From NCBI GenBank assembly GCA_965116025.1, contig OZ220480.1, forward strand, positions 398,415-462,414: 64,000 nt of DNA. Direction: 5' to 3'. The position numbers were made by a program, and so were the translations under genes. Below, piece by piece: positions 1,320 to 19,522 of this stretch (the stretch's first letter is position 1; the number at the start of each line of letters is the position of its first letter). The notes under the pieces are model-generated. The model was given only the letters and a program-made list of their open reading frames with translations. It made no database searches and was not told where the DNA came from. Source of the stretch: an uncultured candidatus Porisulfidus sp. Its GTDB lineage: Bacteria > Pseudomonadota > Gammaproteobacteria > Poriferisulfidales > Poriferisulfidaceae.

Positions 1320-4300
1320 TCAGAAGCGAACCTTCAGCAGGACGCTCGCGCCGTAATCGTGATTGTCGCCATCCGACGCCGCGTAGTACGCGTCCGCCGA
1401 GAGCGTCGACTCCCCCTGCGCGTCCAGCGTCATCACGCCCCCGACGCCCAATCGCGCCCACGTCGACTCCACTTCCGAGCGCAGCCGCGCTCCCGACGCC
1501 ATCACCTCCCGGCTCTCCGAGAGATCGCGTTCCAAATCCAGAGAAGCGTACGTCTGGCCATTCTCCAATAACGCCCCGATCCGCGCCCTCACGCTGTCCT
1601 CCGAGCGAAACGACACCCGACCGCTCCCAGTAACCCCCGACACGTCGGCGAAGCCATCAACGTCCACCCAAATCCACGTCAATCCCCCGCGCGGAACCAG
1701 CGCGAAGCCGTCCATCTCCAGTCGCCTGCCAACCTCCACGCCGATCGCGTGACCCTCTCCGTCCAGACCGGACGCCACCATCCCGCGCGCCTCCGAACTC
1801 AAGTCGACGTCCTTGAAACGCGTGTACGAGAACTCCCCGTCCGCGTACCAGCCGTCCTCTCCCCGCCAGGTCGCCGAAGCCCCAACACCAACGCCCGAGA
1901 CCTCGATCTTCCCGCCGCGCGCGACGTCCGCCTCGCCATCACGGTAGTGCGCGCTCACCCCCAGCATAAGCCCCGGCGCGTCCGTGGGAACGACGAAGCC
2001 CGTCTCCACGCCCCAGCGCTCGAAGTCCCAAGACAGCGCGCGACCCGCATCGTCCATCTCGGTCGTGGACATATCCGCCTCCCGCTCGCCGTCGCTCGCC
2101 AACACCCGCGCCCACGCGCGCCCACCATCTCGCGTCGCCGACAAGCGCGCCTGGCGACCGCCCGGAGCGCTCATCTCCAGCAGCACCGACGGCAACGCCT
2201 CGTACACCCGAGCCCGGGCGTGGTACGTCCGACTGATCTCCTTCTCGGAGTCCACCTGGAACTGGTGCCCGCCCGTGATCGACTTCAGCGTGACCATCCG
2301 CTCGAACACCGCGTCGTACACCCCATGCGTCCCCGTCTTCCCCGACGTCGCCTTCACCGCGTCCCCCACGGCTATCGTCTTCGCCATGCCGGCCGTCGAC
2401 TCGCGCTGGAAGACGTTCGGCGTTTTATCGCCACTATTCAGGAATTTCCCCTTGACGAACGCGATCTGCCCATGCGCGTTCTCCTTCAGGGTGACATGCA
2501 GCGCCTTGTCCGCGCTCACCGCGATCCCCGACGTCGCGCCAATCTCCGCCTTCGGCCCGATCACCAGCGTCCCGCCGTTCACCATCCGAACGCCGGCGTG
2601 CTCGCCGGCGCCGCCCATCACCTTGCCGTTGATCGTGACCGTCTGGTCGTATTGCCCTTTCCGGGCGTGGTCGGACGCGAAGGTCCGCATCCCCTTGACA
2701 TGCACCCCGTCCTTCTTGGCCCGGATCGTCGCCATCTCCCCCACCGTGACCGTGATCTTCCCGGCCGTGGGCGCTTCCATTTCCGTGTAGGCAGTGGCGG
2801 TCTCCGCGTAGACTCCGTATCCATCAGCCATGATCACACCGCCCGACACATCGATCATGATTGGGATGATCATCTTTCGAGCGTCACCATCATCCGAATC
2901 GTCCAGGTCTTTCACGTAGGCCAGAATGCCGTCGCCCCTCGACATGATGTCCGCCTTCGACATGATCTTGATCTCCCCGATCTCGGTGGTGTAGGTCTCG
3001 GGGTTCCCCTCATCGAGCTCCTTGCCGGGAAGTGGCTGGGACTCCGCGCCCCCATGGATGGCGAGAATGCCGGCGGTCCGATCCTTCAGGTCCGCCAGCT
3101 TCGTCTGGTGATCCGCCGAGAGCGAGGAGGAGGAGAATACGTCGGACAGGTCGCCCGCGGTGATCTTCCCCGCCAAATGCTTCACGTCCACCTCGCCCCA
3201 ACCGGTATGCAACGCGAAGACCCCGGAGCCTTTCGCGTGGATGAGGCCCTCGTTGGTAATCATGACGGGGATCTCGTTGTCCGAGGATATGGTCTCGGCG
3301 AACACGCCATGCCCGCCGACTGGAGCGCCGGCGGTCCCGATCCGCGCTCCCTCGGAGACGGTCACCCGAATCGTTCCCCCGTGGGTCTGGTGGAGGGCGT
3401 ACACGCCATGTCGACCCACGGTCGGCTCGTCTCCTTCCATACCGATCCGCGCCCCCGACTTCAGCGTCACCTCAATGTCTCGGTTGATGTCGCCGCGCTG
3501 GCTGTCGTCGTGCGTCGTGCCCCGGTAAACGTAGATCCCGTCCCCGCCAGTTCCCGTCGAAGCGATCTCGCCCGCGAGATCCACCTTGACCAGACCACCG
3601 TTGTGGCCAGCGGAATTAACGTAAATTCCGTCTCCCACGATCTCCGTGTTCCGCCCGCCCGCCGTGATGACGCCCCCCGTCACGTCGACCGTCACCGGAA
3701 CCACGGAATCGGAGTCCCCTTGCGTAGTGACGGAGATGCCATAAGTGCGGGCCCAAATATCTCCGCTCGAGGTGATCATGATCGTGCCGCTAGGAACCTC
3801 GGCGGCGCCCATGGTCGTGTCCCTATGATCAACGGTTATACCATTTTCGTGGATAAACGCGTTATCGGCTAAATCCAGCGTGGCCTCATCGCCCGAGAGC
3901 GTTCGCGGGTAGAGAGGCCATTGCCTCTTGCTGACAAGCGTCCCGTGGTTCGTGACGGTGATGTCGCCCCCCTTGAAGAGGTTGACTAGAATGCCCTTGC
4001 TGGTCACGCTGCCCTTCGCCGTCTCGATGGCGACGTCTCCAGACCCCTCGTTGTACACGTAGATTCCTCGGTAATATCCGTAAATCTCGCCCCGGTTCAT
4101 GATCGAGACGTCGCCCTCGGCGGACGCGTTTCTGTAATACGCGAACACCCCATAAAGCCCCACCGGAATCTCCTCAGTGCCGATCCGCGCCTCGGCCCCG
4201 ACCGTGATCTCGATCTTGTCCGCCCTGTTGGTTTTGGAGGCTTTCTTGTTCCAGACGGTGATCCCGTAGTTCCTGTTGCCCCGCTGATACTGGGGATCAA

Positions 4301-4834
4301 TGAACGTCCCACTGAGCCGCTGGCCATTCTCCGTGTACATGGCCGTGGTGGGCGGAGTCCAACCGCCCGCCTCGTTCACGATCCTCACCTTGCCTTCCAG
4401 ATTCACCGTCAGCGCCCCGTCGCCGACCACCGCGACCCCGGGATTCCGGCCTTGGGTGGGACTGTCGGCAGAAGTGGGAGTATTGCGAGGAAGGAACGAC
4501 TTGATGGTCGTCATCTCCCCGGAAGGCTTCACGGTCAGCGTCAAGCCGCCTGTCTGACCCGTGTACTCGATAGGATTGGGAGTGGCGCTGGTGCCGCCGT
4601 AGGTCGAGGCGGCGCAGGTGACCGTTTTGGTGGCGCCGACATCGCCGCACTGGTTCGCCTTGGCGGAATGCGGAATCAGTGGGATCGAGAGAGCGGCCGT
4701 CAGCCCGGCCAGAGCGATCAGGAAACGAGGGCTATGCCCCCCCCCCCCCCCCCCCCCCCCCCTACGCGGGAAGACGACGAGGCGACGCGACGCGCGGCGC
4801 GCACGGTATCAGAAAAATGCGGGTTGACTCTCAT
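1320..4834 (-). CDS. autotransporter (type Va) copy 1: repetitive beta-helix passenger plus C-terminal beta-barrel; reading frame interrupted at a poly-G tract in this assembly
   Basis: The ORF track gives 1320..4544 (TTG start), and the C terminus ...DYGASVLLKVRF has a terminal aromatic residue, which is typical of an autotransporter barrel. The frame stays open upstream of 4544 and encodes a classical signal peptide, HSPRFLIALAGLTAALSIPLIPHSA/KA, but has no start codon. An ATG at 4834 with an SD-like AGGA opens a leader MRVNPHFSDTVRAARRVASSSSRV that runs into 26 G (4762..4737). This leader is 1 nt out of frame with the signal peptide. Confidence 0.8.
4737..4762 (-). repeat. homopolymeric tract, 26 G on the coding strand (C on the plus strand), inside the 5' coding region of autotransporter 1
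   Basis: Counted directly as plus-strand C 4737..4762. With 26 G the ATG frame terminates as ...RVGGGGGGGGGIALVS*. With 27 or 24 G the leader fuses in frame to the signal peptide. Confidence 0.9.
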
Positions 4835-4870: not shown

Positions 4871-5209
4871 TTATACCCAAAACCCACGCGCCCAAAAATC
4901 CTCACCGGATGGCCAGAGACCGATTCCATCCGAGCAGATCAGGTTTTCGAGGGCATGATTTGGCCCGTACTCTCTAAAGATCGGGACTTCCCACGCTTGC
5001 CCGGGTCGCGCCTCGTCAATCGCTGTTCGGATATCTTCAATCTTATGCCGCGCCCATGCCATGCCGTAGCCATCAGCACGATGATTTCCACCCTTCTTCC
5101 AGCCAAATTTCGCTGATACCGTATATTTTTCCGTGGCCACTATGACCTGATACTCGCCGTCTTCGGCTTTTTGCATCAGCTCCCCATTCTCAAGCGATTC
5201 CCAACCCAT
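4871..5209 (-). CDS. hypothetical protein (112 aa) directly upstream of, and co-oriented with, autotransporter 1; lower GC (about 52%)
   Basis: The ORF has protein-like composition. It ends 36 bp before the autotransporter ATG. I recognise no family. Its GC is clearly below the surrounding DNA. Confidence 0.5.
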   Translation of the reverse strand: MGWESLENGELMQKAEDGEYQVIVATEKYTVSAKFGWKKGGNHRADGYGMAWARHKIEDIRTAIDEARPGQAWEVPIFREYGPNHALENLICSDGIGLWPSGEDFWARGFWV

Positions 5210-5963: not shown

Positions 5964-8189
5964 ATGGTTCCTGCCCTGAGGTGGTTCCTGGCCGGCCCCT
6001 GGCCGGTCCTCGGGATCTTCTTGCTGCTGGCCGGGTCGCTGGCGATCATGGCCGAGGCGACCCAAAGTTCCGGGCATTTCCATCGCTGGCAGTGGTGGGT
6101 GGCCGGTTTCAACGGCGCGCTGGCCCTGGCGCTTCTGGCGCTGATCGGGCTCAGCCTTTCCGGCTTGATCCGCAGGCTGCGCCTGCGCGAGGCCGGCTCG
6201 CGCCTATCGTTGCGCATGACGGCCATGTTCGCCGGCTTCACGCTGATCCCGACCGCGATGGTGTTCGGCTTCTCGGTCTGGCTGATCTCCAGCGGAATCG
6301 ACAGCTGGTTCGACGTGGGAGTCGACGATACCTTGGGCAAGGCGATGGAGTTGAGCCGAACGTCCATCGACATGCAGATGCGGGAGCGCCGCGGCCAGGT
6401 GGAGCGTCTGTTGCGAGAGCCAGCGGACGTGGGCGACCCCGAGACCATGGTCGTGCGCATGAACGACCTGGTGGTCCAGACCGGGGCGCTGGAGGCGACC
6501 CTGCTGGATTCCAGCAATAAGATCGTCGCCTCCCAAGGAGAGGTTCCGGACATTCTTCCAGACCTGCCAGGCGAGGCCCAGCTCCAGCTGTTGCGGGAAA
6601 GCGGCGTTTACATGGCGCAGGAAGAGCACCCGGAGCACGGCCCCATCGTCCGCGTCCTGGTTCAGGTCCCGTCGCTGGTCCAGGAACTGCCTCTGGCCAC
6701 CGAGGATTCGCCATTGTCCCTGAGTCGGGAAATGCCCCTGATGAACCAGGAGTTGCCCCTGACGCTGCAAATCCTGTACCCGGTGTCCGAATACATGCTG
6801 GGCCTGACCGACAGCGTCGAGAAGGCGTCCGACACGTATCGGTTGCTTCTGGAGCTTCGGGGCCCCCTGAAATACAACCTCACCTTCGCGATGTCCCTGG
6901 CGGTCCTGCTGGGACTGCTGTTCGCGATATGGGCGGCCCTTTATTCCGCGCAACGCATCCTCTCCCCGATCGCGGAACTCTCGCGAGGCATCGAGGCCGT
7001 GGCGGCGGGCGAGTACAGCCAGCGTCTTCCGGCCGGGCGGCGCGACGAGCTCGGCCAGATGACGCGCTCTTACAACGGCATGATCGAGCGCCTGGCCAAC
7101 GCCCGGTACGTGGCGGAGACCCGCCGCCTGCTGATCGAGCGCCAGCACGCCTACCTGCATACGGTGCTGGAGCATCTGTCTTCCGGAGTCATCAGCGTCA
7201 ATGATCGCGGCGAGGTGGTCACCGTCAACCACGCCGTTAGCTCGATTCTGGAACTGGAGATCGGGCGATACCTCAAGAAGCCCCTCGGTCTCCCGCGCCA
7301 GGAGCATCCCCGGCTGGAGCCGCTGTGGGATTTGATGGACCGCCAACAGCATAGCGACGACGACCTCGGGGAGCAAGTGCAGATCGACGACGAGCTCAAG
7401 ATTCTGCATTGCCATGGCGCGCGACTGCCGAACGAGGCCGGCTACATAGTGGTGTTTGAGGACATCACGGACCTGCGGCAGGCGCAGCGGCAGGCGGCCT
7501 GGGGCGAGGTGGCCCGGCGAATGGCGCACGAGATCAAGAATCCGCTGACCCCCATCCGCCTCTCGGCCGAACGAATGCGGAGCCGCCTCCAGCCGCTCCT
7601 CGCCGCGAAAGACTCCGAGATCCTGCTGCGCTCCACGCGAACCATCGTGCGCCAGGTGGAATCGATGAATACCATGATCGACGAGTTTCGCGAGCATGCC
7701 GCCGCGCGCTTCACGCCCGAGAGGATGGATCTGAACGCTTTGAGCAGGGAGGTCCTCGATCTGTACATGAGCGACCGCGCGCGAATCTCCATCCACGCCG
7801 ATCTGAGCCACGCCCCGGCCTGGATCCGGGGCGACCCGGACCGAATGCGCCAGTTGCTGCATAACCTGATCAAGAACGCCCGGGAAGCGCAGGAGCGGCA
7901 GGCTAAAGGGTCGATCATCCTGAGCACCCGAGCGCGAAAGGGCGTGGTGACGCTGAAGGTGCGCGACTCCGGCCCCGGCTTCGCGCCAGAAATCCTCGGC
8001 CGGGCTCTGGAGCCGTACGTCACCACCAAGACCAGCGGGCATGGCCTGGGGCTCGCCGTCGTGTTCCGCGTCACGGAAGATCATCAAGGACGGATTCGCG
8101 TATACAATGACCCGGACGGAGGCGGGTGCGTGGAAATCGAGTTCGACGCGGCATCGCGGGAAGATCTGAGCCAGACGAGTCTCTTCTGA
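5964..8189 (+). CDS. ntrY: NtrY-like sensor histidine kinase (N-terminal transmembrane block, HAMP, PAS, HisKA, HATPase)
   Basis: 741 aa. It has several N-terminal hydrophobic segments, the H-box HEIKNPLTPIRLSAERM, and a C-terminal G-box (GHGLGLAVV). It is followed by an NtrX-like regulator and trkA, as in the conserved fmt-(rsmB)-ntrY-ntrX-trkA neighbourhood. Confidence 0.8.
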   Translation: MVPALRWFLAGPWPVLGIFLLLAGSLAIMAEATQSSGHFHRWQWWVAGFNGALALALLALIGLSLSGLIRRLRLREAGSRLSLRMTAMFAGFTLIPTAMVFGFSVWLISSGIDSWFDVGVDDTLGKAMELSRTSIDMQMRERRGQVERLLREPADVGDPETMVVRMNDLVVQTGALEATLLDSSNKIVASQGEVPDILPDLPGEAQLQLLRESGVYMAQEEHPEHGPIVRVLVQVPSLVQELPLATEDSPLSLSREMPLMNQELPLTLQILYPVSEYMLGLTDSVEKASDTYRLLLELRGPLKYNLTFAMSLAVLLGLLFAIWAALYSAQRILSPIAELSRGIEAVAAGEYSQRLPAGRRDELGQMTRSYNGMIERLANARYVAETRRLLIERQHAYLHTVLEHLSSGVISVNDRGEVVTVNHAVSSILELEIGRYLKKPLGLPRQEHPRLEPLWDLMDRQQHSDDDLGEQVQIDDELKILHCHGARLPNEAGYIVVFEDITDLRQAQRQAAWGEVARRMAHEIKNPLTPIRLSAERMRSRLQPLLAAKDSEILLRSTRTIVRQVESMNTMIDEFREHAAARFTPERMDLNALSREVLDLYMSDRARISIHADLSHAPAWIRGDPDRMRQLLHNLIKNAREAQERQAKGSIILSTRARKGVVTLKVRDSGPGFAPEILGRALEPYVTTKTSGHGLGLAVVFRVTEDHQGRIRVYNDPDGGGCVEIEFDAASREDLSQTSLF

Positions 8190-8223
8190 TGACGAGACGT
8201 GAGCCTGAGAGAGAGATGGCGGC

Positions 8224-9573
8224 ATGAATCGGGAATCCATCCTGATCGTCGATGACGAATCCGACATTCGGACCCAAATCCAGGATATCCTTTCCGACCA
8301 GGGCTATCAGGTCCTGCAGGCCCCCTCCGCCGCCGTCGCCCGGGAGACCGCGAGGCGACAGTCGGTGGACCTGGCGTTGCTGGATATCTGGATGCCGGGC
8401 GAGGACGGGATGAGCCTGCTACGGTCCTGGCTCCACGACGACAGCCTGGAGTTCCCGATTCTCATGATGTCCGGACACGGCAACGTCGAGACCGCGCTGG
8501 AGGCCACCCGGCTCGGGGCCTGGCATTATCTGGAGAAGCCCTTCGCGATGGACAAGCTGCTGCTAAGCGTCGCGCGGGCTCTGGAGACCCACCGGCTTCG
8601 CCGACAAAACCAGAACCTGTTCGAGGACACGGCGGCCGCGGAGCGGCTCATCGGCGACAGCCCAGAGATCCGCCGCTTGCGAGAACGGGCGAAAGCGCTT
8701 GGCAACAGCGGGGATCCGGCCCTGATCCTGGGCGAGCCCGGCAGCGAGTTCCTGGCGCTCGCCAACTACATCCACCACAACGGCGCCCGCCACCACTGGC
8801 AGGTCGTCGTCGCCAGCGGGCAGAATCTGGATCAGGGACTGTTCGAGAGGTCGCTGGGCCACGACGCCCCCCTGCTGCTCGAGGCGCATGGCGGCACCCT
8901 GCTGATCGATCCGCTGGACCAATTGGCGATCACGACTCAGCGGCGCCTGCTCTCCGTGCTCGAGAACCGCCACCTCCTGCTGGAGGACGGCACGGCCACC
9001 CCCATCGACGCGCAACTCCTCGCCACCCTGCACCAGAGGCCCGAGACGGCCTTGGCGGCGAAGACGCTGGACCCCGCCCTGTACGCCCGGCTGGCGCCTC
9101 ACACACTGACCCTCCCGCCATTGCGCGAGCGCGCCCAGGACATCCCGCAACTGGTCGAGCATTACACCACCCGCTATTGCGCGCGGGACAACCTTAGCAT
9201 GCGAAGCTTTCCGCCCGACGTGCTGGAATTGCTGCGCCAGCACGACTGGCCGGACAACGCCCACGAGTTGCGCCGCGTCGTCTATCAGCTGCTGATCAGC
9301 GGCGAGGAGAGCGAGATCAGCCGGGAGCGAACCCGGAGCCTGCTGCGCCCGGCCCCATCCGACGACGCTCTCCCCAAAGAGATGGAGGATCTGGTGGATC
9401 TGCCCTATCGAGAGGCCCGCGCGCGGTTCGAGCGGATGTACTACCAATTCCAGATCGAGCGCTGCGGTGGCAGTATCAGCCGCCTGTCCGCCAGCACCAG
9501 CATGGAGCGCACCTATCTGTATCGGAAACTGCGTAGCCTCGGTATCGAGCGGCCAGGGGACTCCTCTTCCTGA
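8224..9573 (+). CDS. ntrX: NtrX-like response regulator (REC, degenerate sigma-54 interaction domain, Fis-type HTH)
   Basis: The receiver reads LIVDDESDIR...LDIWMPGEDG. The central AAA+ region has a degenerate Walker A (GEPGSEF rather than GESGTGKE). The C-terminal HTH reads ERTYLYRKLRSLGI. Confidence 0.75.
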   Translation: MNRESILIVDDESDIRTQIQDILSDQGYQVLQAPSAAVARETARRQSVDLALLDIWMPGEDGMSLLRSWLHDDSLEFPILMMSGHGNVETALEATRLGAWHYLEKPFAMDKLLLSVARALETHRLRRQNQNLFEDTAAAERLIGDSPEIRRLRERAKALGNSGDPALILGEPGSEFLALANYIHHNGARHHWQVVVASGQNLDQGLFERSLGHDAPLLLEAHGGTLLIDPLDQLAITTQRRLLSVLENRHLLLEDGTATPIDAQLLATLHQRPETALAAKTLDPALYARLAPHTLTLPPLRERAQDIPQLVEHYTTRYCARDNLSMRSFPPDVLELLRQHDWPDNAHELRRVVYQLLISGEESEISRERTRSLLRPAPSDDALPKEMEDLVDLPYREARARFERMYYQFQIERCGGSISRLSASTSMERTYLYRKLRSLGIERPGDSSS

Positions 9574-9600
9574 GCGGGAACTGACCCTCTCTCCCGACAC

Positions 9601-10962
9601 ATGAAGATCATCATTCTCGGGGCGGGCCGGATCGGTAGCTCGCTGGCGGTCGGACTGGCTCAGGAAAACAGCGAGATCACGCTGGTGGACCTGGAGGAGA
9701 GCAGCCTGAGCGCCGTCTCCAGCCACGTGGACCTGCGCGCCATCTGCGGCAACGGGGCGCACCCCAACATTCTGCGGCAGGCCGGCGCCGAGGATGCCGA
9801 CATGCTGGTCGCGCTGACCCGCAGCGACGAGGTCAACATGATCGCCTGCCAAGTCGCCTACAGCCTGTTCAACACGCCCCAGCGGATCGCCCGGGTGCGG
9901 GCCTCGGAGTACCTGACGCAGGGCGATCTGTTCATGACGGAGTCCCTGCCCATCGACGTTCTGATCAGTCCGGAGCAGATCGCGGCGCGCAACGTCGAGC
10001 AACTGATCCGCCATCCCGGCCCTCTGCAGGTGTTCGAGTTCGCCGACGGTCTGGTGAAGCTCGCTATGGTGCGCGTCTCCCCCGGCGCCGAGGCCGCCGG
10101 GCGCAGCCTGCTCGACCTGCGCCACAGCCTTCCGGACATCCAGCTGCGCGTGGCCGCCGTCTACCGGGACCAGCGACTCCTGAAGCCGGAGCCCGAGTTG
10201 CGCCTCAAGGCGCACGACGAGATCTTCGTTCTCGCGCGCGCGGAGCAGCTCGGCGCGGTCGTCAAGAAATTGCGCGTCCGGGTCGGTCGGAGCCGCCACA
10301 TCGTCATCGCCGGCGGCGGCAACGTCGGCCACGGCGTGGCCGCGCGGCTGGAGTCGGTCTGCCACGTCAAGATCATCGAGCACGACGAGCACCGCGCCCG
10401 CTATCTGTCGGAGCAGCTGTCCCGGGCCACGGTGCTGCAGGGCAACGCGACCGACGACAAGCTGCTGCTCGACGAGAACATCCGGGACATGGACGTTTTC
10501 TGCGCGCTGACCAACAACGAGGAAGCCAATATTCTGTCGGCCATGCAGGCCAAGCGCATGGGGGCGTCCACCACGATCGCCCTGATTGACCGGCCGATCT
10601 ACCTCGACCTGATCGAGCGCTCCATCGATATCGCGGTCTCTCCCCAGCAGGCCACGTTGAGCGAGCTGCTGACGCACATTCGCCAGGGAGACGTGCTCGC
10701 GGTGCACTCGCTGCGGCGCGGACGCGCCGAGGCTCTGGAGGCCAAGGCCCACCGCACGGCCGCGGCGATCGGCAAGCCGATCGGAGAGCTCGACCTTCCA
10801 GCTGGCGCCGCCATCATCGCGCTGGTCCGCGGCGGCGAGATGATTCTGCCGAACGCGCTCAGCGCGATTCAGCCAGATGATCGCGTCATCCTGTTCATCA
10901 GCGACAAGCGATACCTGAAGGACGTCGAGCGCCTGTTCCAGGTCAGCGCCACGTTTTTCTGA
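9601..10962 (+). CDS. trkA: Trk potassium uptake protein, NAD-binding subunit
   Basis: It starts MKIIILGAGRIGSSLA and carries two Rossmann-type GxGxxG segments (the second is IVIAGGGNVGHGVA). 453 aa. Confidence 0.9.
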   Translation: MKIIILGAGRIGSSLAVGLAQENSEITLVDLEESSLSAVSSHVDLRAICGNGAHPNILRQAGAEDADMLVALTRSDEVNMIACQVAYSLFNTPQRIARVRASEYLTQGDLFMTESLPIDVLISPEQIAARNVEQLIRHPGPLQVFEFADGLVKLAMVRVSPGAEAAGRSLLDLRHSLPDIQLRVAAVYRDQRLLKPEPELRLKAHDEIFVLARAEQLGAVVKKLRVRVGRSRHIVIAGGGNVGHGVAARLESVCHVKIIEHDEHRARYLSEQLSRATVLQGNATDDKLLLDENIRDMDVFCALTNNEEANILSAMQAKRMGASTTIALIDRPIYLDLIERSIDIAVSPQQATLSELLTHIRQGDVLAVHSLRRGRAEALEAKAHRTAAAIGKPIGELDLPAGAAIIALVRGGEMILPNALSAIQPDDRVILFISDKRYLKDVERLFQVSATFF

Positions 10963-10965
10963 CCC

Positions 10966-12432
10966 ATGCCGATCCAGTACCGGGTCGTCCAGCGCCTGCT
11001 CGGCTACCTGCTGACCGTTTTCAGTCTCGGAATGCTGCCTCCCTTGGCGCTGAGCCTGGCGCTGGACGACGGCGAGGCGTTCTCGTTCCTATACACGTTC
11101 TTCCTGCTGTCCCTCCTAGGCATCGCCCTGTGGGTCCAAGCCGCGCGCCGGGCCCCGCGCCGGCAACCTCTGCGACTGCGCGACGGCTTCGTGGTCGTCT
11201 CTCTGTTCTGGATCGGTCTGGGGCTGGCCGGGTCCATTCCCCTGTACATCTCGCCTTCTCTGCGACTCAGCGGAACCGACGCCGTGTTCGAGGCGGTCTC
11301 GGGGCTAACCACCACCGGCGCGACGGCGCTGTCGGGTCTGGACGGTATGCCTCCGTCCATCCTGTTCTACCGCCAGCTCCTGCAGTGGGTCGGCGGCCTC
11401 GGCATCATCGTGCTTGCGGTCGCCATCCTGCCTCTGGTCGGCATGGGGGGCGTGCAACTGTACCAGGCGGAAGCTCCGCACTCCCTAGCCGAGCGGCGTC
11501 TAACCCCGCGCATCGCCGAGACCGCCAAGGTGCTGCTGTATCTGTATTCCGGCCTGACCCTCGCCTGCGGACTCGCGTACTGGGGAGCCGGCATGAGCCC
11601 GTTCGACGCCGTCTGCCACGCGCTCTCCACCGTCGCCATCGGAGGCTTCTCCACCCACGACGCCAGCCTTGGACACTTCGACAGCGTTCTGATCGAGGCG
11701 ACCGCGATCATCTTCATGATCTTGGCCGGGGCGAATTTCGGGCTGCATTATCTGGCGCTGAGCCGGCGCGGCCTCCAACCGTACCTCCAAAACGGGGAAT
11801 TCCGCGCCTATATCACGGTGCTGGCCACGGTGGCCATCATCTGCGTCGGCTATCTTTGGGCCACGTCCTTCTCCGAAGACCCGCTCGAGACCGCGCGCCA
11901 CGGACTCTTCCAAGCCGTGTCCATCGCCACCACCACCGGATACGCCACGACCGGATACGACCACTGGCCCGCGTTCGCGTCCACGCTGCTCTTGCTCGCC
12001 AGCTTCATCGGCGGATGCGTCGGCTCCACTGGCGGCGGGATGAAGGTGATCCGATTCTTGCTGATGGTCAAGCACGGCGGCAAGGAACTGTACCGGATCA
12101 TCCACCCCTCCGTGCAGGTCACGGTCCGGATCGGAGACCGCGTGATGCCGCAAAGCGCCCTGCAGTCGGTCTGGGGATTCTTCGCCGCCTACATCACGAC
12201 CTTCACCGCGCTGTTTCTGCTGCTGATGATGACCGGGCTGGACCAAGTCAGCGCGTTCTCGGCGGTGGCCGCCACCCTCAACAACCTAGGGCCCGGACTC
12301 GGAGAGGTCAGCCAGAACTACGCCTCGGTGAGCGACTTCGGCAAGTGGCTGCTGTGCGCCAGCATGGTGTTCGGGCGCCTGGAGGTCTTCACCCTGCTGG
12401 TGATCCTGACACCGGCGTTCTGGCGCCGATAG
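10966..12432 (+). CDS. trkH: Trk potassium uptake permease
   Basis: 488-aa polytopic membrane protein beginning 3 nt after the trkA stop. It has the repeated GGxSTxD and GGCxGSTGGG pore-loop signatures of TrkH. Confidence 0.85.
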   Translation: MPIQYRVVQRLLGYLLTVFSLGMLPPLALSLALDDGEAFSFLYTFFLLSLLGIALWVQAARRAPRRQPLRLRDGFVVVSLFWIGLGLAGSIPLYISPSLRLSGTDAVFEAVSGLTTTGATALSGLDGMPPSILFYRQLLQWVGGLGIIVLAVAILPLVGMGGVQLYQAEAPHSLAERRLTPRIAETAKVLLYLYSGLTLACGLAYWGAGMSPFDAVCHALSTVAIGGFSTHDASLGHFDSVLIEATAIIFMILAGANFGLHYLALSRRGLQPYLQNGEFRAYITVLATVAIICVGYLWATSFSEDPLETARHGLFQAVSIATTTGYATTGYDHWPAFASTLLLLASFIGGCVGSTGGGMKVIRFLLMVKHGGKELYRIIHPSVQVTVRIGDRVMPQSALQSVWGFFAAYITTFTALFLLLMMTGLDQVSAFSAVAATLNNLGPGLGEVSQNYASVSDFGKWLLCASMVFGRLEVFTLLVILTPAFWRR

Positions 12433-15703: not shown

Positions 15704-18700
15704 TCAGAAGCGAACCTTCAGCAGGACGCTCGCGCCGTAATCGTGATTGTCGCCGTCCGACGCCGCGTAGTGAGCGTCACCCGATAGCGTCGACTCCCCT
15801 TGCGCGTCCAAGACCATCACGCCCCCGCTGCCCAAACGCGCCCACGTGGACTCCACCTCCGAGCGCAGCCGCGACCCCGAAGCCATCACGTCCCGGCTCT
15901 CCGACAGCTCGCGCTCCACGTCCAATGAGGCGTACGTCTCGCCGTTCTCCAACAGTACCCCGATACGCGCCCGCGCGCTGTCCTCCGAGCGAAACGACAC
16001 CCGACCGCTTCCAGCAACGCCCGAAACGTCGGCGAAGTCGTCGACATCCACCCATGTCCACGTCAATCCTCCGCGCGGGATCAGCGCGAAGCCGTCCATC
16101 TCCATGCGCCTGCCGACCTCCACGCCGACCGCGTGACCCTCTCCGTCCAGACCGGACGCCACCATCCCCCGAGTCTCCGAGCTCAGGTCGACATCCTCGA
16201 AACGCGTGTACGAGAGCTCCCCGTCCGCGTACCAGCCGTCCTCCCCCCGCCAAGTCGCCGATGCCCCGACGCCCACGCCCGAGACCTCGATCTTCCCGCC
16301 CCGCGCGACGTCCGCCTCGCCGTCGCGGTAGTGCGCGCTCACGCCCAGCATCAGCCCCGGCGCGTCCGTAGGAACGACGATGCCCGTCTCCACGCCCCAG
16401 CGCTCGAAATCCCAAGACAGCGCGCGACCCGCATCGTCCATCTCGGTCGTGGATGTCTCCACCTCCCGCTCGCCGTCGCTCGCCAACACCCGCGCCCACG
16501 CGCCCCCGCCGTCCCGCGTCGCCGACAAACGCGCCTGACGACCGCCCGGCGCGCTCATCTCCAGCAGCACCGACGGCAGCGCCTCGTACACCCGAGCCCG
16601 GGCATGGTACGTCCGGCTGATCTCCTTCTCGGAGTCCACCTGGAACTGATGCCCGCCCGTGATCGACCTCAGCGTGACCATCCGCTCGAACACCGCGTCG
16701 TACACCCCATGCGTCCCCGTCTTCCCCGACGTCGCCTTCACCGCGTCCCCCACGGCGATCATCTTCTTCGCGCCGGCCATCAACTCCCGCTGGAAGACGT
16801 TCGGCGCGTCCTTTCCACTGTTCAGGAATTTCCCCATGACGAAAGCGATCTGCCCATGCTCGTTCTCCTTCAGGGTGACATGCAGCGCCTTGTCCGCGCT
16901 CACCGCGATCCCCGACGTCGCGCCGATCTCCGCCTTCGGCCCGATCATCAGCGTCCCGCCGTTCACCATCCGAACGCCGGCGTGCTCGCCGCCGCCGCCC
17001 ATCACCTTGCCGTTGATGGTGACCGTCTGGTCGTAGTGCCCCGCCCGGGTAGCGTGATCTTCCGCGAAGGTCCGCATGCCCTTGACATGCACCCCGTCCT
17101 TCTTGGCCCGGATCGTCGCCATCTCCCCTACCGTGACGCTGATCTTCCCGGCTTTCGGCGCGTCCTCGTCCTCGTAGGTGGTGGCCGTCTCCGCGTGCAC
17201 GCCATGCCCGTCCGCCATGATCGTTCCGCCAGCCACGTCGATCTTGATCGGGACGATCATCTCGATGTCCTGTACCCCCTCCGCGTCGTTCAAGTCTTTC
17301 ACATAGGCGAGAATGCCGTCGCCCTTCGACGTGACGCTCCCTTTCGACGTGATCTCGATCTTCCCGATCTTGGCCTCGTAGGTGGAGGGGGCTTGAGAGT
17401 CGACCGCCGTCTCGTCGGAAGCCGCCTGGGGCCGCGAACTCCCATGAACGGCGAGGATGCCGGCGGTCCTGCCTTTCAGGTCCGCCAATTCCATCTTTTC
17501 AGACTCCGTTATGGAATCCACGTCACTGTCCAAGATATCGAGCGCGTCGCCCGCGACGATCTCGCCCTTCAAGTGCTTCGCGACCACGTCGCCCCAGCCG
17601 CGATGCAGAGCGGCCACCCCCGAGCCCTTCGCGTGGATGAAGCCTTCGTTGGTGACCGTGATATCAGTCTCGTCAGTAGAATTGACCACATTAGTGAACA
17701 CGCCGTGTCCGCCAACCGGAGTCCCCGCGGTCCCGATCATCGCTCCCTCGGATACCGTCACCCGGATCGCTCCCCCGTAGATTTGCTGCTGGACGAGCAC
17801 GCCATGCCGACCCACGGTCGGCTCGTCTCCCTCCACGCCGATCCGCGCCCCGGACTTCAGCGTCACCTCAATGCCGCTGGGTTTCACGACGGCCGCCGGT
17901 TTGGTCGGTCGGAACCGATACGCATGGATGCCATCGCCACCTTCGCCAGCTGTGCCCGTCCGGGTGATCGCGCCCGCCAGATCCACCTTGACGAGACCCC
18001 CGTTATGCTCATGATGAATTTTGATCCCGTGGCCGTTCAATCCGCCCCCCATGAGGCTCCCTCCCGTCACGTTGATCGTGACCGGAACCACGGAATCGTC
18101 GTCCCCTTTCGTCGTGACTCGAATGCCTTCCGTCCACCAATAGGGCGCGACGCCCGGGTCCGTCACGACCTCGATGTCGCCGCTCGACGTGATCGAGACC
18201 TCGCTGCTGGCCTGCCCGTCCGCGGCCGGAGCGCTCTTGTCCTCGTGAAACACGTGAATCCCGGCGCGCGCGTACGCGCTTCGAGTTTCCACATGCCCGC
18301 TCTCCGTCGGATTCGCCATTTTCAGATAGCGGAGCGGATGGCTCTGAACCACGATCTTGCCCTCATGGACGATCGTGATGTCACCGCCGCCAGAAGACGA
18401 GCCCGGGGCTATCCAAACATCCCTAAGCCAGCGCTCTTCCAGACCCTCGTCCTGGAGATTCCCCGCCGACGCCCGGATCCCTTGCGAGGTCACGCTATTC
18501 TTCGCCGTCTTGATCACGGTGTCGCCCCCGCCCGAGCGATGCGCCAGTATCCCGGCATACGTCCCGTAAATCTCGCCCGCGTTCGTCACGCTGATGTCCG
18601 TGTCATGCTGAAAGTACGCTAGAACGCCGTACCCGCCCATCGGTTTGTCCTCGGTTCCGATCCGCGCCTCGTCTCCCACCATCACCTCGGCGCGGTCCTT

Positions 18701-19296
18701 CTGAGCGTCGGCGTCGCTTCCCAAGTGCTTCACGTAGACGCCGTGGTTGAGCCCCGCCCCGCGGTCCCTCGAATCAATGGCCTTCCCGATGCGCGTGACC
18801 GTCGTGGACAGCCCCGTCACGAGCCTCCGGGTCGCCCCGCTCTCAATGCGGACCCGCCCATCGAGAACGACTTTCTTCAGGGCGCCGGGCCCGCTCAGGA
18901 CGATCCCCGGCCGAGCGTCGCTCGCGCCACTGGGTATTCCACTGGACGTGATGGTGACCGTGCCCGCCCCGGAAGGCTGGACCGTCAGCGTCACGCTCCG
19001 GCCTGGCGCGGCGAGATCGTATCCGATCGGCGGGCCGTCGGCCTTGGTGTAGGTCGGGTCGTCGCAAGTGACTTCGGCGGCGCCCGAGCCGCTGGGAAGG
19101 TCGCCGCAGTTTCCCGTGTCCGCCGCCATGGCGGAGTGCGGAATCAGCGGAATGGAGAGAACGGCCGTCAATCCGGCCAGAACGGTCAGGAAACGGAGGC
19201 TATGCCCCCCCCCCCCCCCCCCCCCCCTACGCGGGAAGACGACGAGGCGACGCGAAACGCGGCGCGAATCTCGGAAACGGACAGGTTCTTGGTCAT
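15704..19296 (-). CDS. autotransporter (type Va) copy 2, paralogue of 1320..4834; reading frame interrupted at a poly-G tract in this assembly
   Basis: The ORF track gives 15704..19171 (TTG start inside the signal peptide, ...LTVLAGLTAVLSIPLIPHSAMA). Its C terminus ...LLKVRF is about 93% identical to copy 1 over roughly the last 600 aa. An ATG at 19296 opens the leader MTKNLSVSEIRAAFRVASSSSRV, followed by 23 G (19227..19205), and is 1 nt out of frame (ORF 19186..19371 in the track). Confidence 0.8.
19205..19227 (-). repeat. homopolymeric tract, 23 G on the coding strand, inside the 5' coding region of autotransporter 2
   Basis: Plus-strand C run 19205..19227. The count is consistent with the track ORF 19186..19371, which encodes ...RVGGGGGGGGIASVS*. 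24 or 21 G would restore the frame. Confidence 0.85.
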
Positions 19297-19409
19297 TATT
19301 CGTCCCTTTTCAAGGATCAATCTCGGATGGCCGCGCATTATACCCCCAGCGCCCGCGCGCTTCCAAACCAAAATAATCGCGCCGAATCGCCACCGCCGAG
19401 CGCGCCCTG

Positions 19410-19446: not shown

Positions 19447-19522
19447 GGCCAGGTAGCTCAGTCGGTAGAGCAGGGGACTGAAAATCCCCGTGTCGGCGGT
19501 TCGATTCCGTCCCTGGCCACCA
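19447..19522 (+). tRNA. tRNA-Phe (GAA)
   Basis: A 76-nt cloverleaf GGCCAGGTAGCTCAGTCGGTAGAGCAGGGGACTGAAAATCCCC...TGGCCACCA, with anticodon loop CT-GAA-AA and an encoded CCA end. Confidence 0.95.

Follow-up and report, generated by a model that had tools for sequence, protein, structure and literature searches.

Two autotransporter genes in a 64,000-nucleotide stretch of contig OZ220480.1 from an uncultured candidatus Porisulfidus sp. (positions 398,415 to 462,414; referred to here as the window) carry a long poly-G tract between a short leader and the signal peptide. The length of the tract decides whether leader and signal peptide share a reading frame, and the arrangement probably serves as a switch for phase variation by slipped-strand mispairing, in a family of contingency genes, working in a manner similar to Opa and PilC of Neisseria. 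The two genes, denoted copy 1 and copy 2, are encoded on the minus strand; copy 2 is the main subject of the analysis. The coordinates of their features are collected in Table 1.

Tract, leader and signal peptide in the two genes

The 23 C residues noted in copy 2 by the original prediction are present and correspond to 23 G on the coding strand. The tract begins 69 nt after the leader ATG (72 nt in copy 1), and a stop-free open reading frame (ORF) of 1,166 codons starts right after it in another frame and ends at 15704. When tract lengths of 19–27 G were simulated in copy 2, lengths of 21, 24 and 27 G gave proteins of 1,196–1,198 amino acids, and the remaining lengths gave products of 30–37 amino acids. 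The prediction that the leader reaches the signal-peptide frame with 21 or 24 G is thereby borne out, with 27 G as a further solution; the Sec signal peptide can be reached from the start codon only at a tract length that is a multiple of three. It was also correct that the tract is one nucleotide short at the same place as in copy 1, as both genes need +1. In the 23-G state the Gly codons are followed by GGC ATA GCC TCC GTT TCC and then by a TGA, which is the +1 reading of the conserved ...CGT TTC CTG A.. (RFL) codons; a TGA is found at the same position in copy 1 (4720-4718) and in L056, a relative from another genome.

The signal peptide of copy 2, delimited by inspection, consists of an n-region (HSLRF), an h-region (LTVLAGLTAVLSIPLI) and an A-x-A site (PHSAMA/AD), and its LAGLT core aligns with the LAGLT cores of all relatives. 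Apart from the tracts of copies 1 and 2, no homopolymer in the window exceeds 8 nt, and there is no run of 9–22 nt. A chance occurrence of the copy 2 tract and its layout is far too unlikely, and both are real. Shorter runs were used as a control of assembly quality: nine of 11 runs of 7–8 nt lie within uninterrupted ORFs and two are intergenic or at ORF edges, a control that has little bearing on runs of 23–26 nt.

Both copies are classical type Va autotransporters, as indicated by a Pfam match, structural matches and a structural model that shows passenger, linker helix and barrel. PF03797, the autotransporter β-domain, is the sole Pfam match of the two frame-restored proteins (E=1.8e-25 and 1.7e-25). 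Foldseek matches the C-terminus to the β-domains of BrkA, NalP, EspP, Hbp and AIDA-I, with target-normalised TM-scores of 0.64–0.77 and a probability of 1.00; these proteins are alike in the C-terminal β-domain but unlike in sequence, with an identity of 13–21%. Full-length EstA ranks first. The AlphaFold model of the in-frame paralogue P0003 (mean predicted local distance difference test score, pLDDT, 71.5) features an all-β passenger of short strands, a helix at residues 888–904 and a barrel of long strands; residues 1–60, which comprise leader, poly-Gly and signal peptide, are disordered. No sequence relative of the family was found in the PDB, and its full-length matches form about 5 clusters among 1.84 billion representatives.

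A promoter scan of the copy 2 region gave 2 sites, compared with 0.1 expected from shuffled sequences. The GGGTATAAT −10 motif is also found upstream of copy 1 (4875-4870) and of the relative L057; upstream of copy 1 the scan did not find a full −35/−10 match. In copy 1 the signal-peptide frame contains no ATG, GTG or TTG from the tract to about codon 65 of the mature protein. Copy 2 has a TTG at 19171, which is CTG in copy 1, and a start there would remove the n-region. Since there is no usable alternative, the leader ATG is the only start able to supply a signal peptide. In six homologues, four of them paralogues (P0003, P0012, P0013 and P0019) and two from other genomes (L053 and L054), a single frame extends from the homologous ATG by way of poly-Gly to the signal peptide. 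On this sequence evidence the tract is assigned to the gene itself, rather than to a promoter spacer.

That the leader is translated, as originally proposed, is supported by the geometry of the promoter-like and Shine-Dalgarno-like motifs, the lack of another start and the six in-frame homologues. The accompanying proposal that it is under selection fared less well in the codon-position test. Across the 23-codon leader, copies 1 and 2 differ at 6/6/6 sites by codon position, and 1 synonymous and 8 non-synonymous codon changes were counted, all upstream of an identical block; this comparison consequently gives no evidence of constraint at the peptide level. The last 14 leader codons are almost identical DNA, and the idea that the nucleotides diverge while the peptides stay similar does not hold, as the shared RAA and RVASSSSRV elements are encoded by identical nucleotides (CGCGCCGCG and CGCGTCGCCTCGTCGTCTTCCCGCGTA). 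Across genomes the differences by codon position (83:100:120) show a weak third-position excess. Selection on the leader peptide is therefore not supported, the test being negative between the two copies and weak across genomes. The leaders share a loose pattern, M-x-K/N-N-x-S-[VI]-S...AA, and the features that are conserved are an ATG, an open leader of 22–25 codons and the position of the tract. Four leader/signal-peptide sequences gave no match at E≤10 to the extended signal peptide region of autotransporters (ESPR, PF13018) or to another Pfam family.

Both copies (19228-19243 and 4763-4778) and L053, L054 and L056 have a pyrimidine-rich stretch (11–13 of 16 nt) directly ahead of the G run, so that the leader ends are rich in Ser, Phe and Leu; this is confined to the close relatives and is not seen in other families. 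Pairing of this stretch with the G run in an RNA hairpin was considered and discarded, as folding was no better than that of shuffled sequences.

The proteins of copies 1 and 2 are 65% identical overall and about 95% identical over the last ~450 residues. The 24 nt upstream of the tract are identical and the downstream flanks near-identical, around tracts of 26 and 23 G. Neither ORF, each of more than 1,130 codons, contains an internal stop. The ratio of non-synonymous to synonymous substitution rates (dN/dS) between the copies is 0.09–0.13 in the β-domain and 0.30–0.87 in the passenger. Since the ORFs are uninterrupted and dN/dS lies at 0.09–0.87, both copies have been kept as coding genes by purifying selection despite their out-of-frame state. 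The intact ORFs fit intermittent expression, or genes that are actually ON.

Table 1. Features of the two autotransporter genes in the window, and tract states of paralogues and relatives
Feature	Position	Strand	Remarks
Copy 2 promoter-like site, TTGGAA-18-TATAAT	19337..19366	minus	sigma-70-like, 10/12 matches
Copy 2 Shine-Dalgarno-like AAGGGA	19303..19308	minus	6 nt before leader ATG; consensus resemblance only
Copy 2 leader ORF, 23 codons, MTKNLSVSEIRAAFRVASSSSRV	19228..19296	minus	ATG 19296-19294
Copy 2 poly-G tract	19205..19227	minus	23 nt (poly-C on plus strand); codes for poly-Gly; sets leader/signal-peptide frame
Copy 2 TGA ending the leader frame at 23 G	19186..19188	minus	36-codon product
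Copy 2 signal peptide, HSLRFLTVLAGLTAVLSIPLIPHSAMA	19124..19204	minus	by inspection; Arg n-region, hydrophobic core, A-x-A before ADTGNCG
Copy 2 passenger and translocator	15704..19123	minus	uninterrupted to stop 15704-15706
Copy 2 autotransporter β-domain, PF03797	15806..16453	minus	E=1.8e-25; residues 949-1164 of frame-restored protein
Copy 1 leader ORF, 24 codons, MRVNPHFSDTVRAARRVASSSSRV	4763..4834	minus	ATG at 4834
Copy 1 poly-G tract	4737..4762	minus	26 nt; in frame at 24, 27 or 30 G
Copy 1 signal peptide, passenger, β-domain	1320..4736	minus	
Four paralogues in frame, leader to poly-Gly to signal peptide			P0003 (7 Gly), P0012 (R + 5 Gly), P0013 (7 Gly), P0019 (8 Gly)
Seventeen paralogues annotated from internal Met, Val or Leu			include P0001 (copy 2) and P0010 (copy 1); fits out-of-frame tracts
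One paralogue, P0005			annotated from upstream ATG in signal-peptide frame; 20 G, needs-+1 state
Two paralogues, P0007 and P0024			begin MSRFL, just after the tract position of other copies (there (G)n-HSLRFL)
Relative L053			25 G; in frame
Relative L054			19 G; in frame
Relative L055			20 G; needs +1 for ATG-rich leader; annotated from distant in-frame GTG
Relative L056			25 G; needs +1
Relative L057			28 G; needs −1 for homologous leader; annotated P0029 in frame via overlapping ATG

Paralogues and relatives

The search for other poly-G autotransporter genes in the genome that the original prediction had suggested found a family: at least 24 paralogues were identified by protein search on the 2,018,984-bp contig that holds the window, four of them in frame through poly-Gly; TrkH of the window likewise maps to a contig of this length. 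With 24 genes of about 3.4 kb, the family takes up about 4% of 2 Mb. The tract states of the 22 paralogues other than copies 1 and 2 were taken from annotated N-termini only; in the resulting tally four paralogues are in frame, 18 are out of frame or truncated by annotation and two have an ATG of their own. As the latter ATG lies just after the tract position, P0007 and P0024 may be independent of the switch. With 17 of the 24 genes called from internal starts, annotation pipelines truncate or mis-start most members of the family.

The paralogues are mosaic, with blocks of 96–100% identity alternating with blocks of 25–55% identity in differing combinations. P0004, for example, is 34–54% identical to copy 2 in the N-terminal passenger but 96–100% identical over its final ~500 residues; the opposite holds for P0003, and in P0016 the middle is most similar. 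Such a pattern points to exchange among the copies by cassette shuffling or gene conversion.

The closer relatives, L053–L057, come from two European Nucleotide Archive assemblies with metaMDBG-style contig names. No close relative lacks the tract: as Table 1 shows, runs of G19–G28 occupy the same site across the related genomes, both in frame and out of frame. L057 features two overlapping ATGs in different frames before its 28-G tract (2998-3006, ATGAATGATT), so that a full-length ORF would result in two of the three possible phases of the tract; its annotated protein P0029 uses the ATG that is not homologous to the others. L053 contains a further homopolymer of 29 C (2900-2928), intergenic and about 40 nt upstream of the −10-like TACAAT of the autotransporter gene; this second run has no counterpart in the window copies.

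A 41%-identical homologue (P0030/L001) is without a tract, and its signal peptide is a plain one that begins at a separate ATG. In a scan of reference genomes, more distant homologues were found only in complete chromosomes of metagenome-assembled genomes (MAGs) of the Sanger ‘cobiont’ type, one of which is named Candidatus Poriferihabitaceae. This name is known from MAGs of the sponge Phakellia ventilabrum, obtained by PacBio HiFi sequencing and metaMDBG assembly (PMC12859430). Judging by these relatives, the genome of the window probably also stems from a sponge or some other invertebrate. Scans of Joint Genome Institute (JGI) metagenomes with a DNA pattern (poly-G plus the LAGLT core) and with a protein profile did not find relatives.

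The Paracoccaceae MAG OZ220486.1 contains about 20 analogous genes with runs of G9–G14 between a short leader (e.g. MKE..MGYSEQSGY) and a signal peptide lacking its own Met. By their homologous leaders, four are in frame, six need −1 and 10 need +1. Paralogues with identical 30-nt flanks have G9 (L009), G10 (L004, L011) or G11 (L017, L022), and L006 (G10) and L020 (G11) likewise differ in tract length.

In more distant autotransporter genes of alphaproteobacterial MAGs, runs of 15–32 C on the sense strand lie about 16–35 nt upstream of the ATG or likely start (L031 425-456, L039 769-784, L044 780-794, L051 469-488 and, in the Paracoccaceae MAG, L010 1755-1773). These are in a 5′-untranslated region (5′-UTR) or promoter position, not intragenic, and the run of L031 precedes a motif, GAGGAG, that resembles a ribosome-binding site. 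Among 143 representatives of the wider family, five (P0053, P0087, P0144, P0044 and P0098) have poly-Pro or poly-Gly by the N-terminal signal peptide, in P0053 in the order leader, PPPPPP, signal peptide; poly-C tracts may therefore serve in the same way. In L040 a perfect hairpin or palindrome (C14-5 nt-G14, 3870-3902) adjoins the upstream side of a lipoprotein-like 756-codon ORF (starting MFVSGGSLEVLMAASKHFPVLVCAALLALGAC).

Some 2 kb upstream of copy 2, on the far side of a divergent tRNA-Phe (GAA; 19447-19522, plus strand) that is about 80 nt from the promoter-like site, there is a gene for Transposase_29 (PF21804; 21196-23424, plus strand). Transposase_29 also flanks the autotransporter in L057 (1-1123), and IS4-type DDE transposases flank that in L054 (1-2828). 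Directly upstream of copy 1 is a 112-codon ORF (4871-5209, minus strand) with a low third-position G+C content (GC3) of 0.55 and no Pfam match, and the DNA around it is visibly lower in G+C than its surroundings. The window further contains a gene order of ntrY-like kinase, ntrX-like sigma-54 activator, trkA and trkH (5964-12432, plus strand), which is associated with Alphaproteobacteria and is, as such, a taxonomic hint, and a cluster of tRNA-Lys, His, Arg and Pro (29406-29764).

Probable switch, and consensus error or recoding as alternatives

In the mechanism favoured here, slipped-strand mispairing at replication would add G residues to the intragenic tract or remove them. At lengths divisible by three (21, 24, 27) the leader, poly-Gly, signal peptide, passenger and barrel would be translated; at other lengths translation would end 1–6 codons past the tract, and the protein would be OFF. 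Each of the mosaic paralogues, at least 24 in number, would have its own switch, toggled independently, and the population would therefore display changing subsets of variable surface proteins. Length change in living cells may be frequent and reversible, and 23 G may be the majority state of copy 2; the tracts are so long that a population is probably a mixture, of which the assembled length would at best be the commonest. The biological role may lie in evading host recognition, phagocytosis or phage.

Several points weigh against a switch of this kind. Variation in tract length was seen between paralogues and relatives only, not within one locus. The lengths are taken from consensus sequences, probably made from PacBio HiFi reads by racon-like partial order alignment (POA) polishing after homopolymer compression, and the ON/OFF call of a single long tract is uncertain because an error of ±1 is plausible in 23–26 nt. 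Among the long tracts a need for +1 is also commoner than a need for −1 (6:1, binomial p=0.125), which leaves a little room for an undercall bias.

It is possible, if rather unlikely, that the architecture is real and the out-of-frame lengths are not, the modal lengths being 24 G and 27 G, with both genes ON and their tracts undercalled by HiFi sequencing or POA consensus. The related MAGs were obtained by PacBio HiFi and metaMDBG, and since metaMDBG works on homopolymer-compressed reads and takes its run lengths from a racon-like POA consensus (PMC11392814), an error of ±1 in a run of 23–26 nt is plausible. The intact state of the two window ORFs and the purifying selection on them would also follow, and six of the seven out-of-frame long tracts need +1, with one needing −1. 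However, the tracts of at least 19 nt whose state can be assigned divide into six in frame, six needing +1 and one needing −1, with no significant departure from equal thirds (chi-square p=0.146); a systematic tendency of long tracts to be one base short, at 6:1, is not significant either and was not retained. A need for +1 is equivalent to two bases too many, and two copies would both need +1 by chance in about 1 of 9 cases. Undercalling of every long tract is ruled out by the in-frame copies (four paralogues, L053 and L054), so that any undercall must be intermittent. Among the short tracts of G9–G14, whose consensus is expected to be more dependable, some need +1 and others −1, with only 4 of 20 in frame. 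The case is weakened further in that the genome of the window is only presumed to have the same metaMDBG/HiFi origin.

Slippage of RNA polymerase or the ribosome on the G run could instead express the out-of-frame genes, with the tract tuning the level of expression and no switch in the DNA. All codons of the run are GGG, so that re-pairing in another frame would cost nothing, and the out-of-frame copies have been kept intact. Phase-variable tracts are typically of roughly 8–14 nt, and the runs of 19–28 nt found here are much longer, which would also suit recoding. A programmed site should nevertheless keep its frame relation, whereas here six of the 13 long tracts are simply in frame and the others include both out-of-frame states; folding predicts no stimulatory RNA structure (z-scores +1.25, +1.27, −0.27 and +1.53), and intermittent ON phases account for the intact ORFs equally well. 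With frame relations that vary between homologues and no predicted structure, recoding is not favoured and is considered improbable. Least credible, to the point of being very improbable, is that the tract is a spacer in the promoter or 5′-UTR with the real start downstream, or that both copies are decaying pseudogenes. A downstream start would agree with the annotation of P0001 and P0010 from an internal Met or Val, with the poly-C runs upstream of the ATG in the more distant MAG autotransporters, and with P0007 and P0024, whose MSRFL start lies just after the tract position (these two are described from their annotated N-termini and may or may not carry a tract). But the promoter-like site and the Shine-Dalgarno-like motif both lie upstream of the leader ATG, copy 1 offers no start codon over the stretch described above and the TTG of copy 2 is unsuitable, and internal starts would delete the signal peptide that an autotransporter needs. 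Decay was rejected, as internal stops are absent from the ORFs and dN/dS stays well under 1.

The slipped-strand switch is open to a direct test, since HiFi reads of MAGs of this type are publicly available and one read gives the tract length of one cell. One consensus length of a 20–28-nt homopolymer should not count as an ON/OFF call.

Significance and comparison with known systems

Most known cases of repeat-driven phase variation of surface proteins are in pathogens and in commensals of vertebrates, and the explanation given for them is adaptive immunity together with bottlenecks. Outer-membrane protein families controlled by simple sequence repeats are known; what is unusual here is the setting, which is probably invertebrate-associated, and the scale, together with the unusually long tract. 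Families of an analogous kind are also present in unrelated MAGs, taken from invertebrate-associated (‘cobiont’) assemblies of the Sanger type. If real, the arrangement would point to pressure from host or phage on the surfaces of symbionts, in favour of stochastic variation. There is perhaps an even chance that at least two to three proteobacterial lineages of bacteria from marine invertebrates, probably sponges, maintain large mosaic autotransporter families of 20 or more genes, each gated at the 5′ end by a long G/C homopolymer. In that proposal, which could fall either way, gating would take the form of intragenic poly-G after a short leader or of poly-C just upstream of the ATG. If true, it would mean Opa-like contingency or antigenic variation in symbionts of animals without adaptive immunity, and strong fluctuating selection on symbiont surfaces, e.g. 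by host recognition, phagocytosis or phage. The searchable literature yielded no account of phase-variable autotransporter families in sponge symbionts.

The known systems compared below (Opa, PilC, capD/capC and OipA) are not homologous to this family; as regards Opa, Pfam gives PF03797 only and no homology was found. The Campylobacter genes likewise encode autotransporters; poly-G lies within the ORF in capD (CapD/CapA) and ahead of the start codon in capC (PMC7168839), and the MAG autotransporters described here show both arrangements. The Campylobacter tracts range from G4 to G10 or more, and a good part of the inactivation is ascribed to gene decay, not tract length (PMC7168839). Those genes are few per genome, whereas here the ORFs are intact and the tracts 2–3 times longer.

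OipA, an outer-membrane protein of Helicobacter pylori, undergoes frame-shift phase variation by slipped-strand mispairing in a 5′ repeat of its gene (PMC10564699). It differs from the present family in that the repeat is a CT dinucleotide and the protein is not an autotransporter. HopZ and SabA of the same species are comparable to OipA. The extended signal peptides of autotransporters (ESPR) have a similar length and two-part layout to the ~58-residue in-frame pre-sequence seen here, but contain neither poly-Gly nor a repeat, and the present leaders do not match PF13018.

In the Opa system of Neisseria every gene of a dispersed multigene family has a CTCTT repeat of its own in the leader-peptide region, and the repeat number sets the frame (PMC5354566). 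Cells express none to several members, whose genes are composed of conserved, semivariable and hypervariable segments (PMC5354566). The likeness, an analogy without homology, lies in a dispersed outer-membrane family, here of at least 24 mosaic paralogues, with a repeat in the leader or pre-sequence. The Opa repeat is a pentamer, not a homopolymer, and its switching was shown experimentally in a human pathogen, whereas the present case is made from sequence. The Opa proteins are also small β-barrels, compared with autotransporters of ~1,200 amino acids here.

In PilC of Neisseria gonorrhoeae, frameshifts in a homo-G run in the signal-peptide region switch expression on and off independently of RecA, as reported in PMC5354566, which cites Jonsson et al. 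1991. The type of repeat and the kind of position are the same as here, but PilC is encoded by two genes rather than a family of 24 and is a pilus tip adhesin, not an autotransporter. The PilC tract is about a dozen G long, compared with 19–28 here. Unlike in PilC, the tract of the present family lies upstream of the n-region, after a separate leader of ~23 amino acids, and the ON product would therefore carry 7–9 Gly ahead of the n-region.

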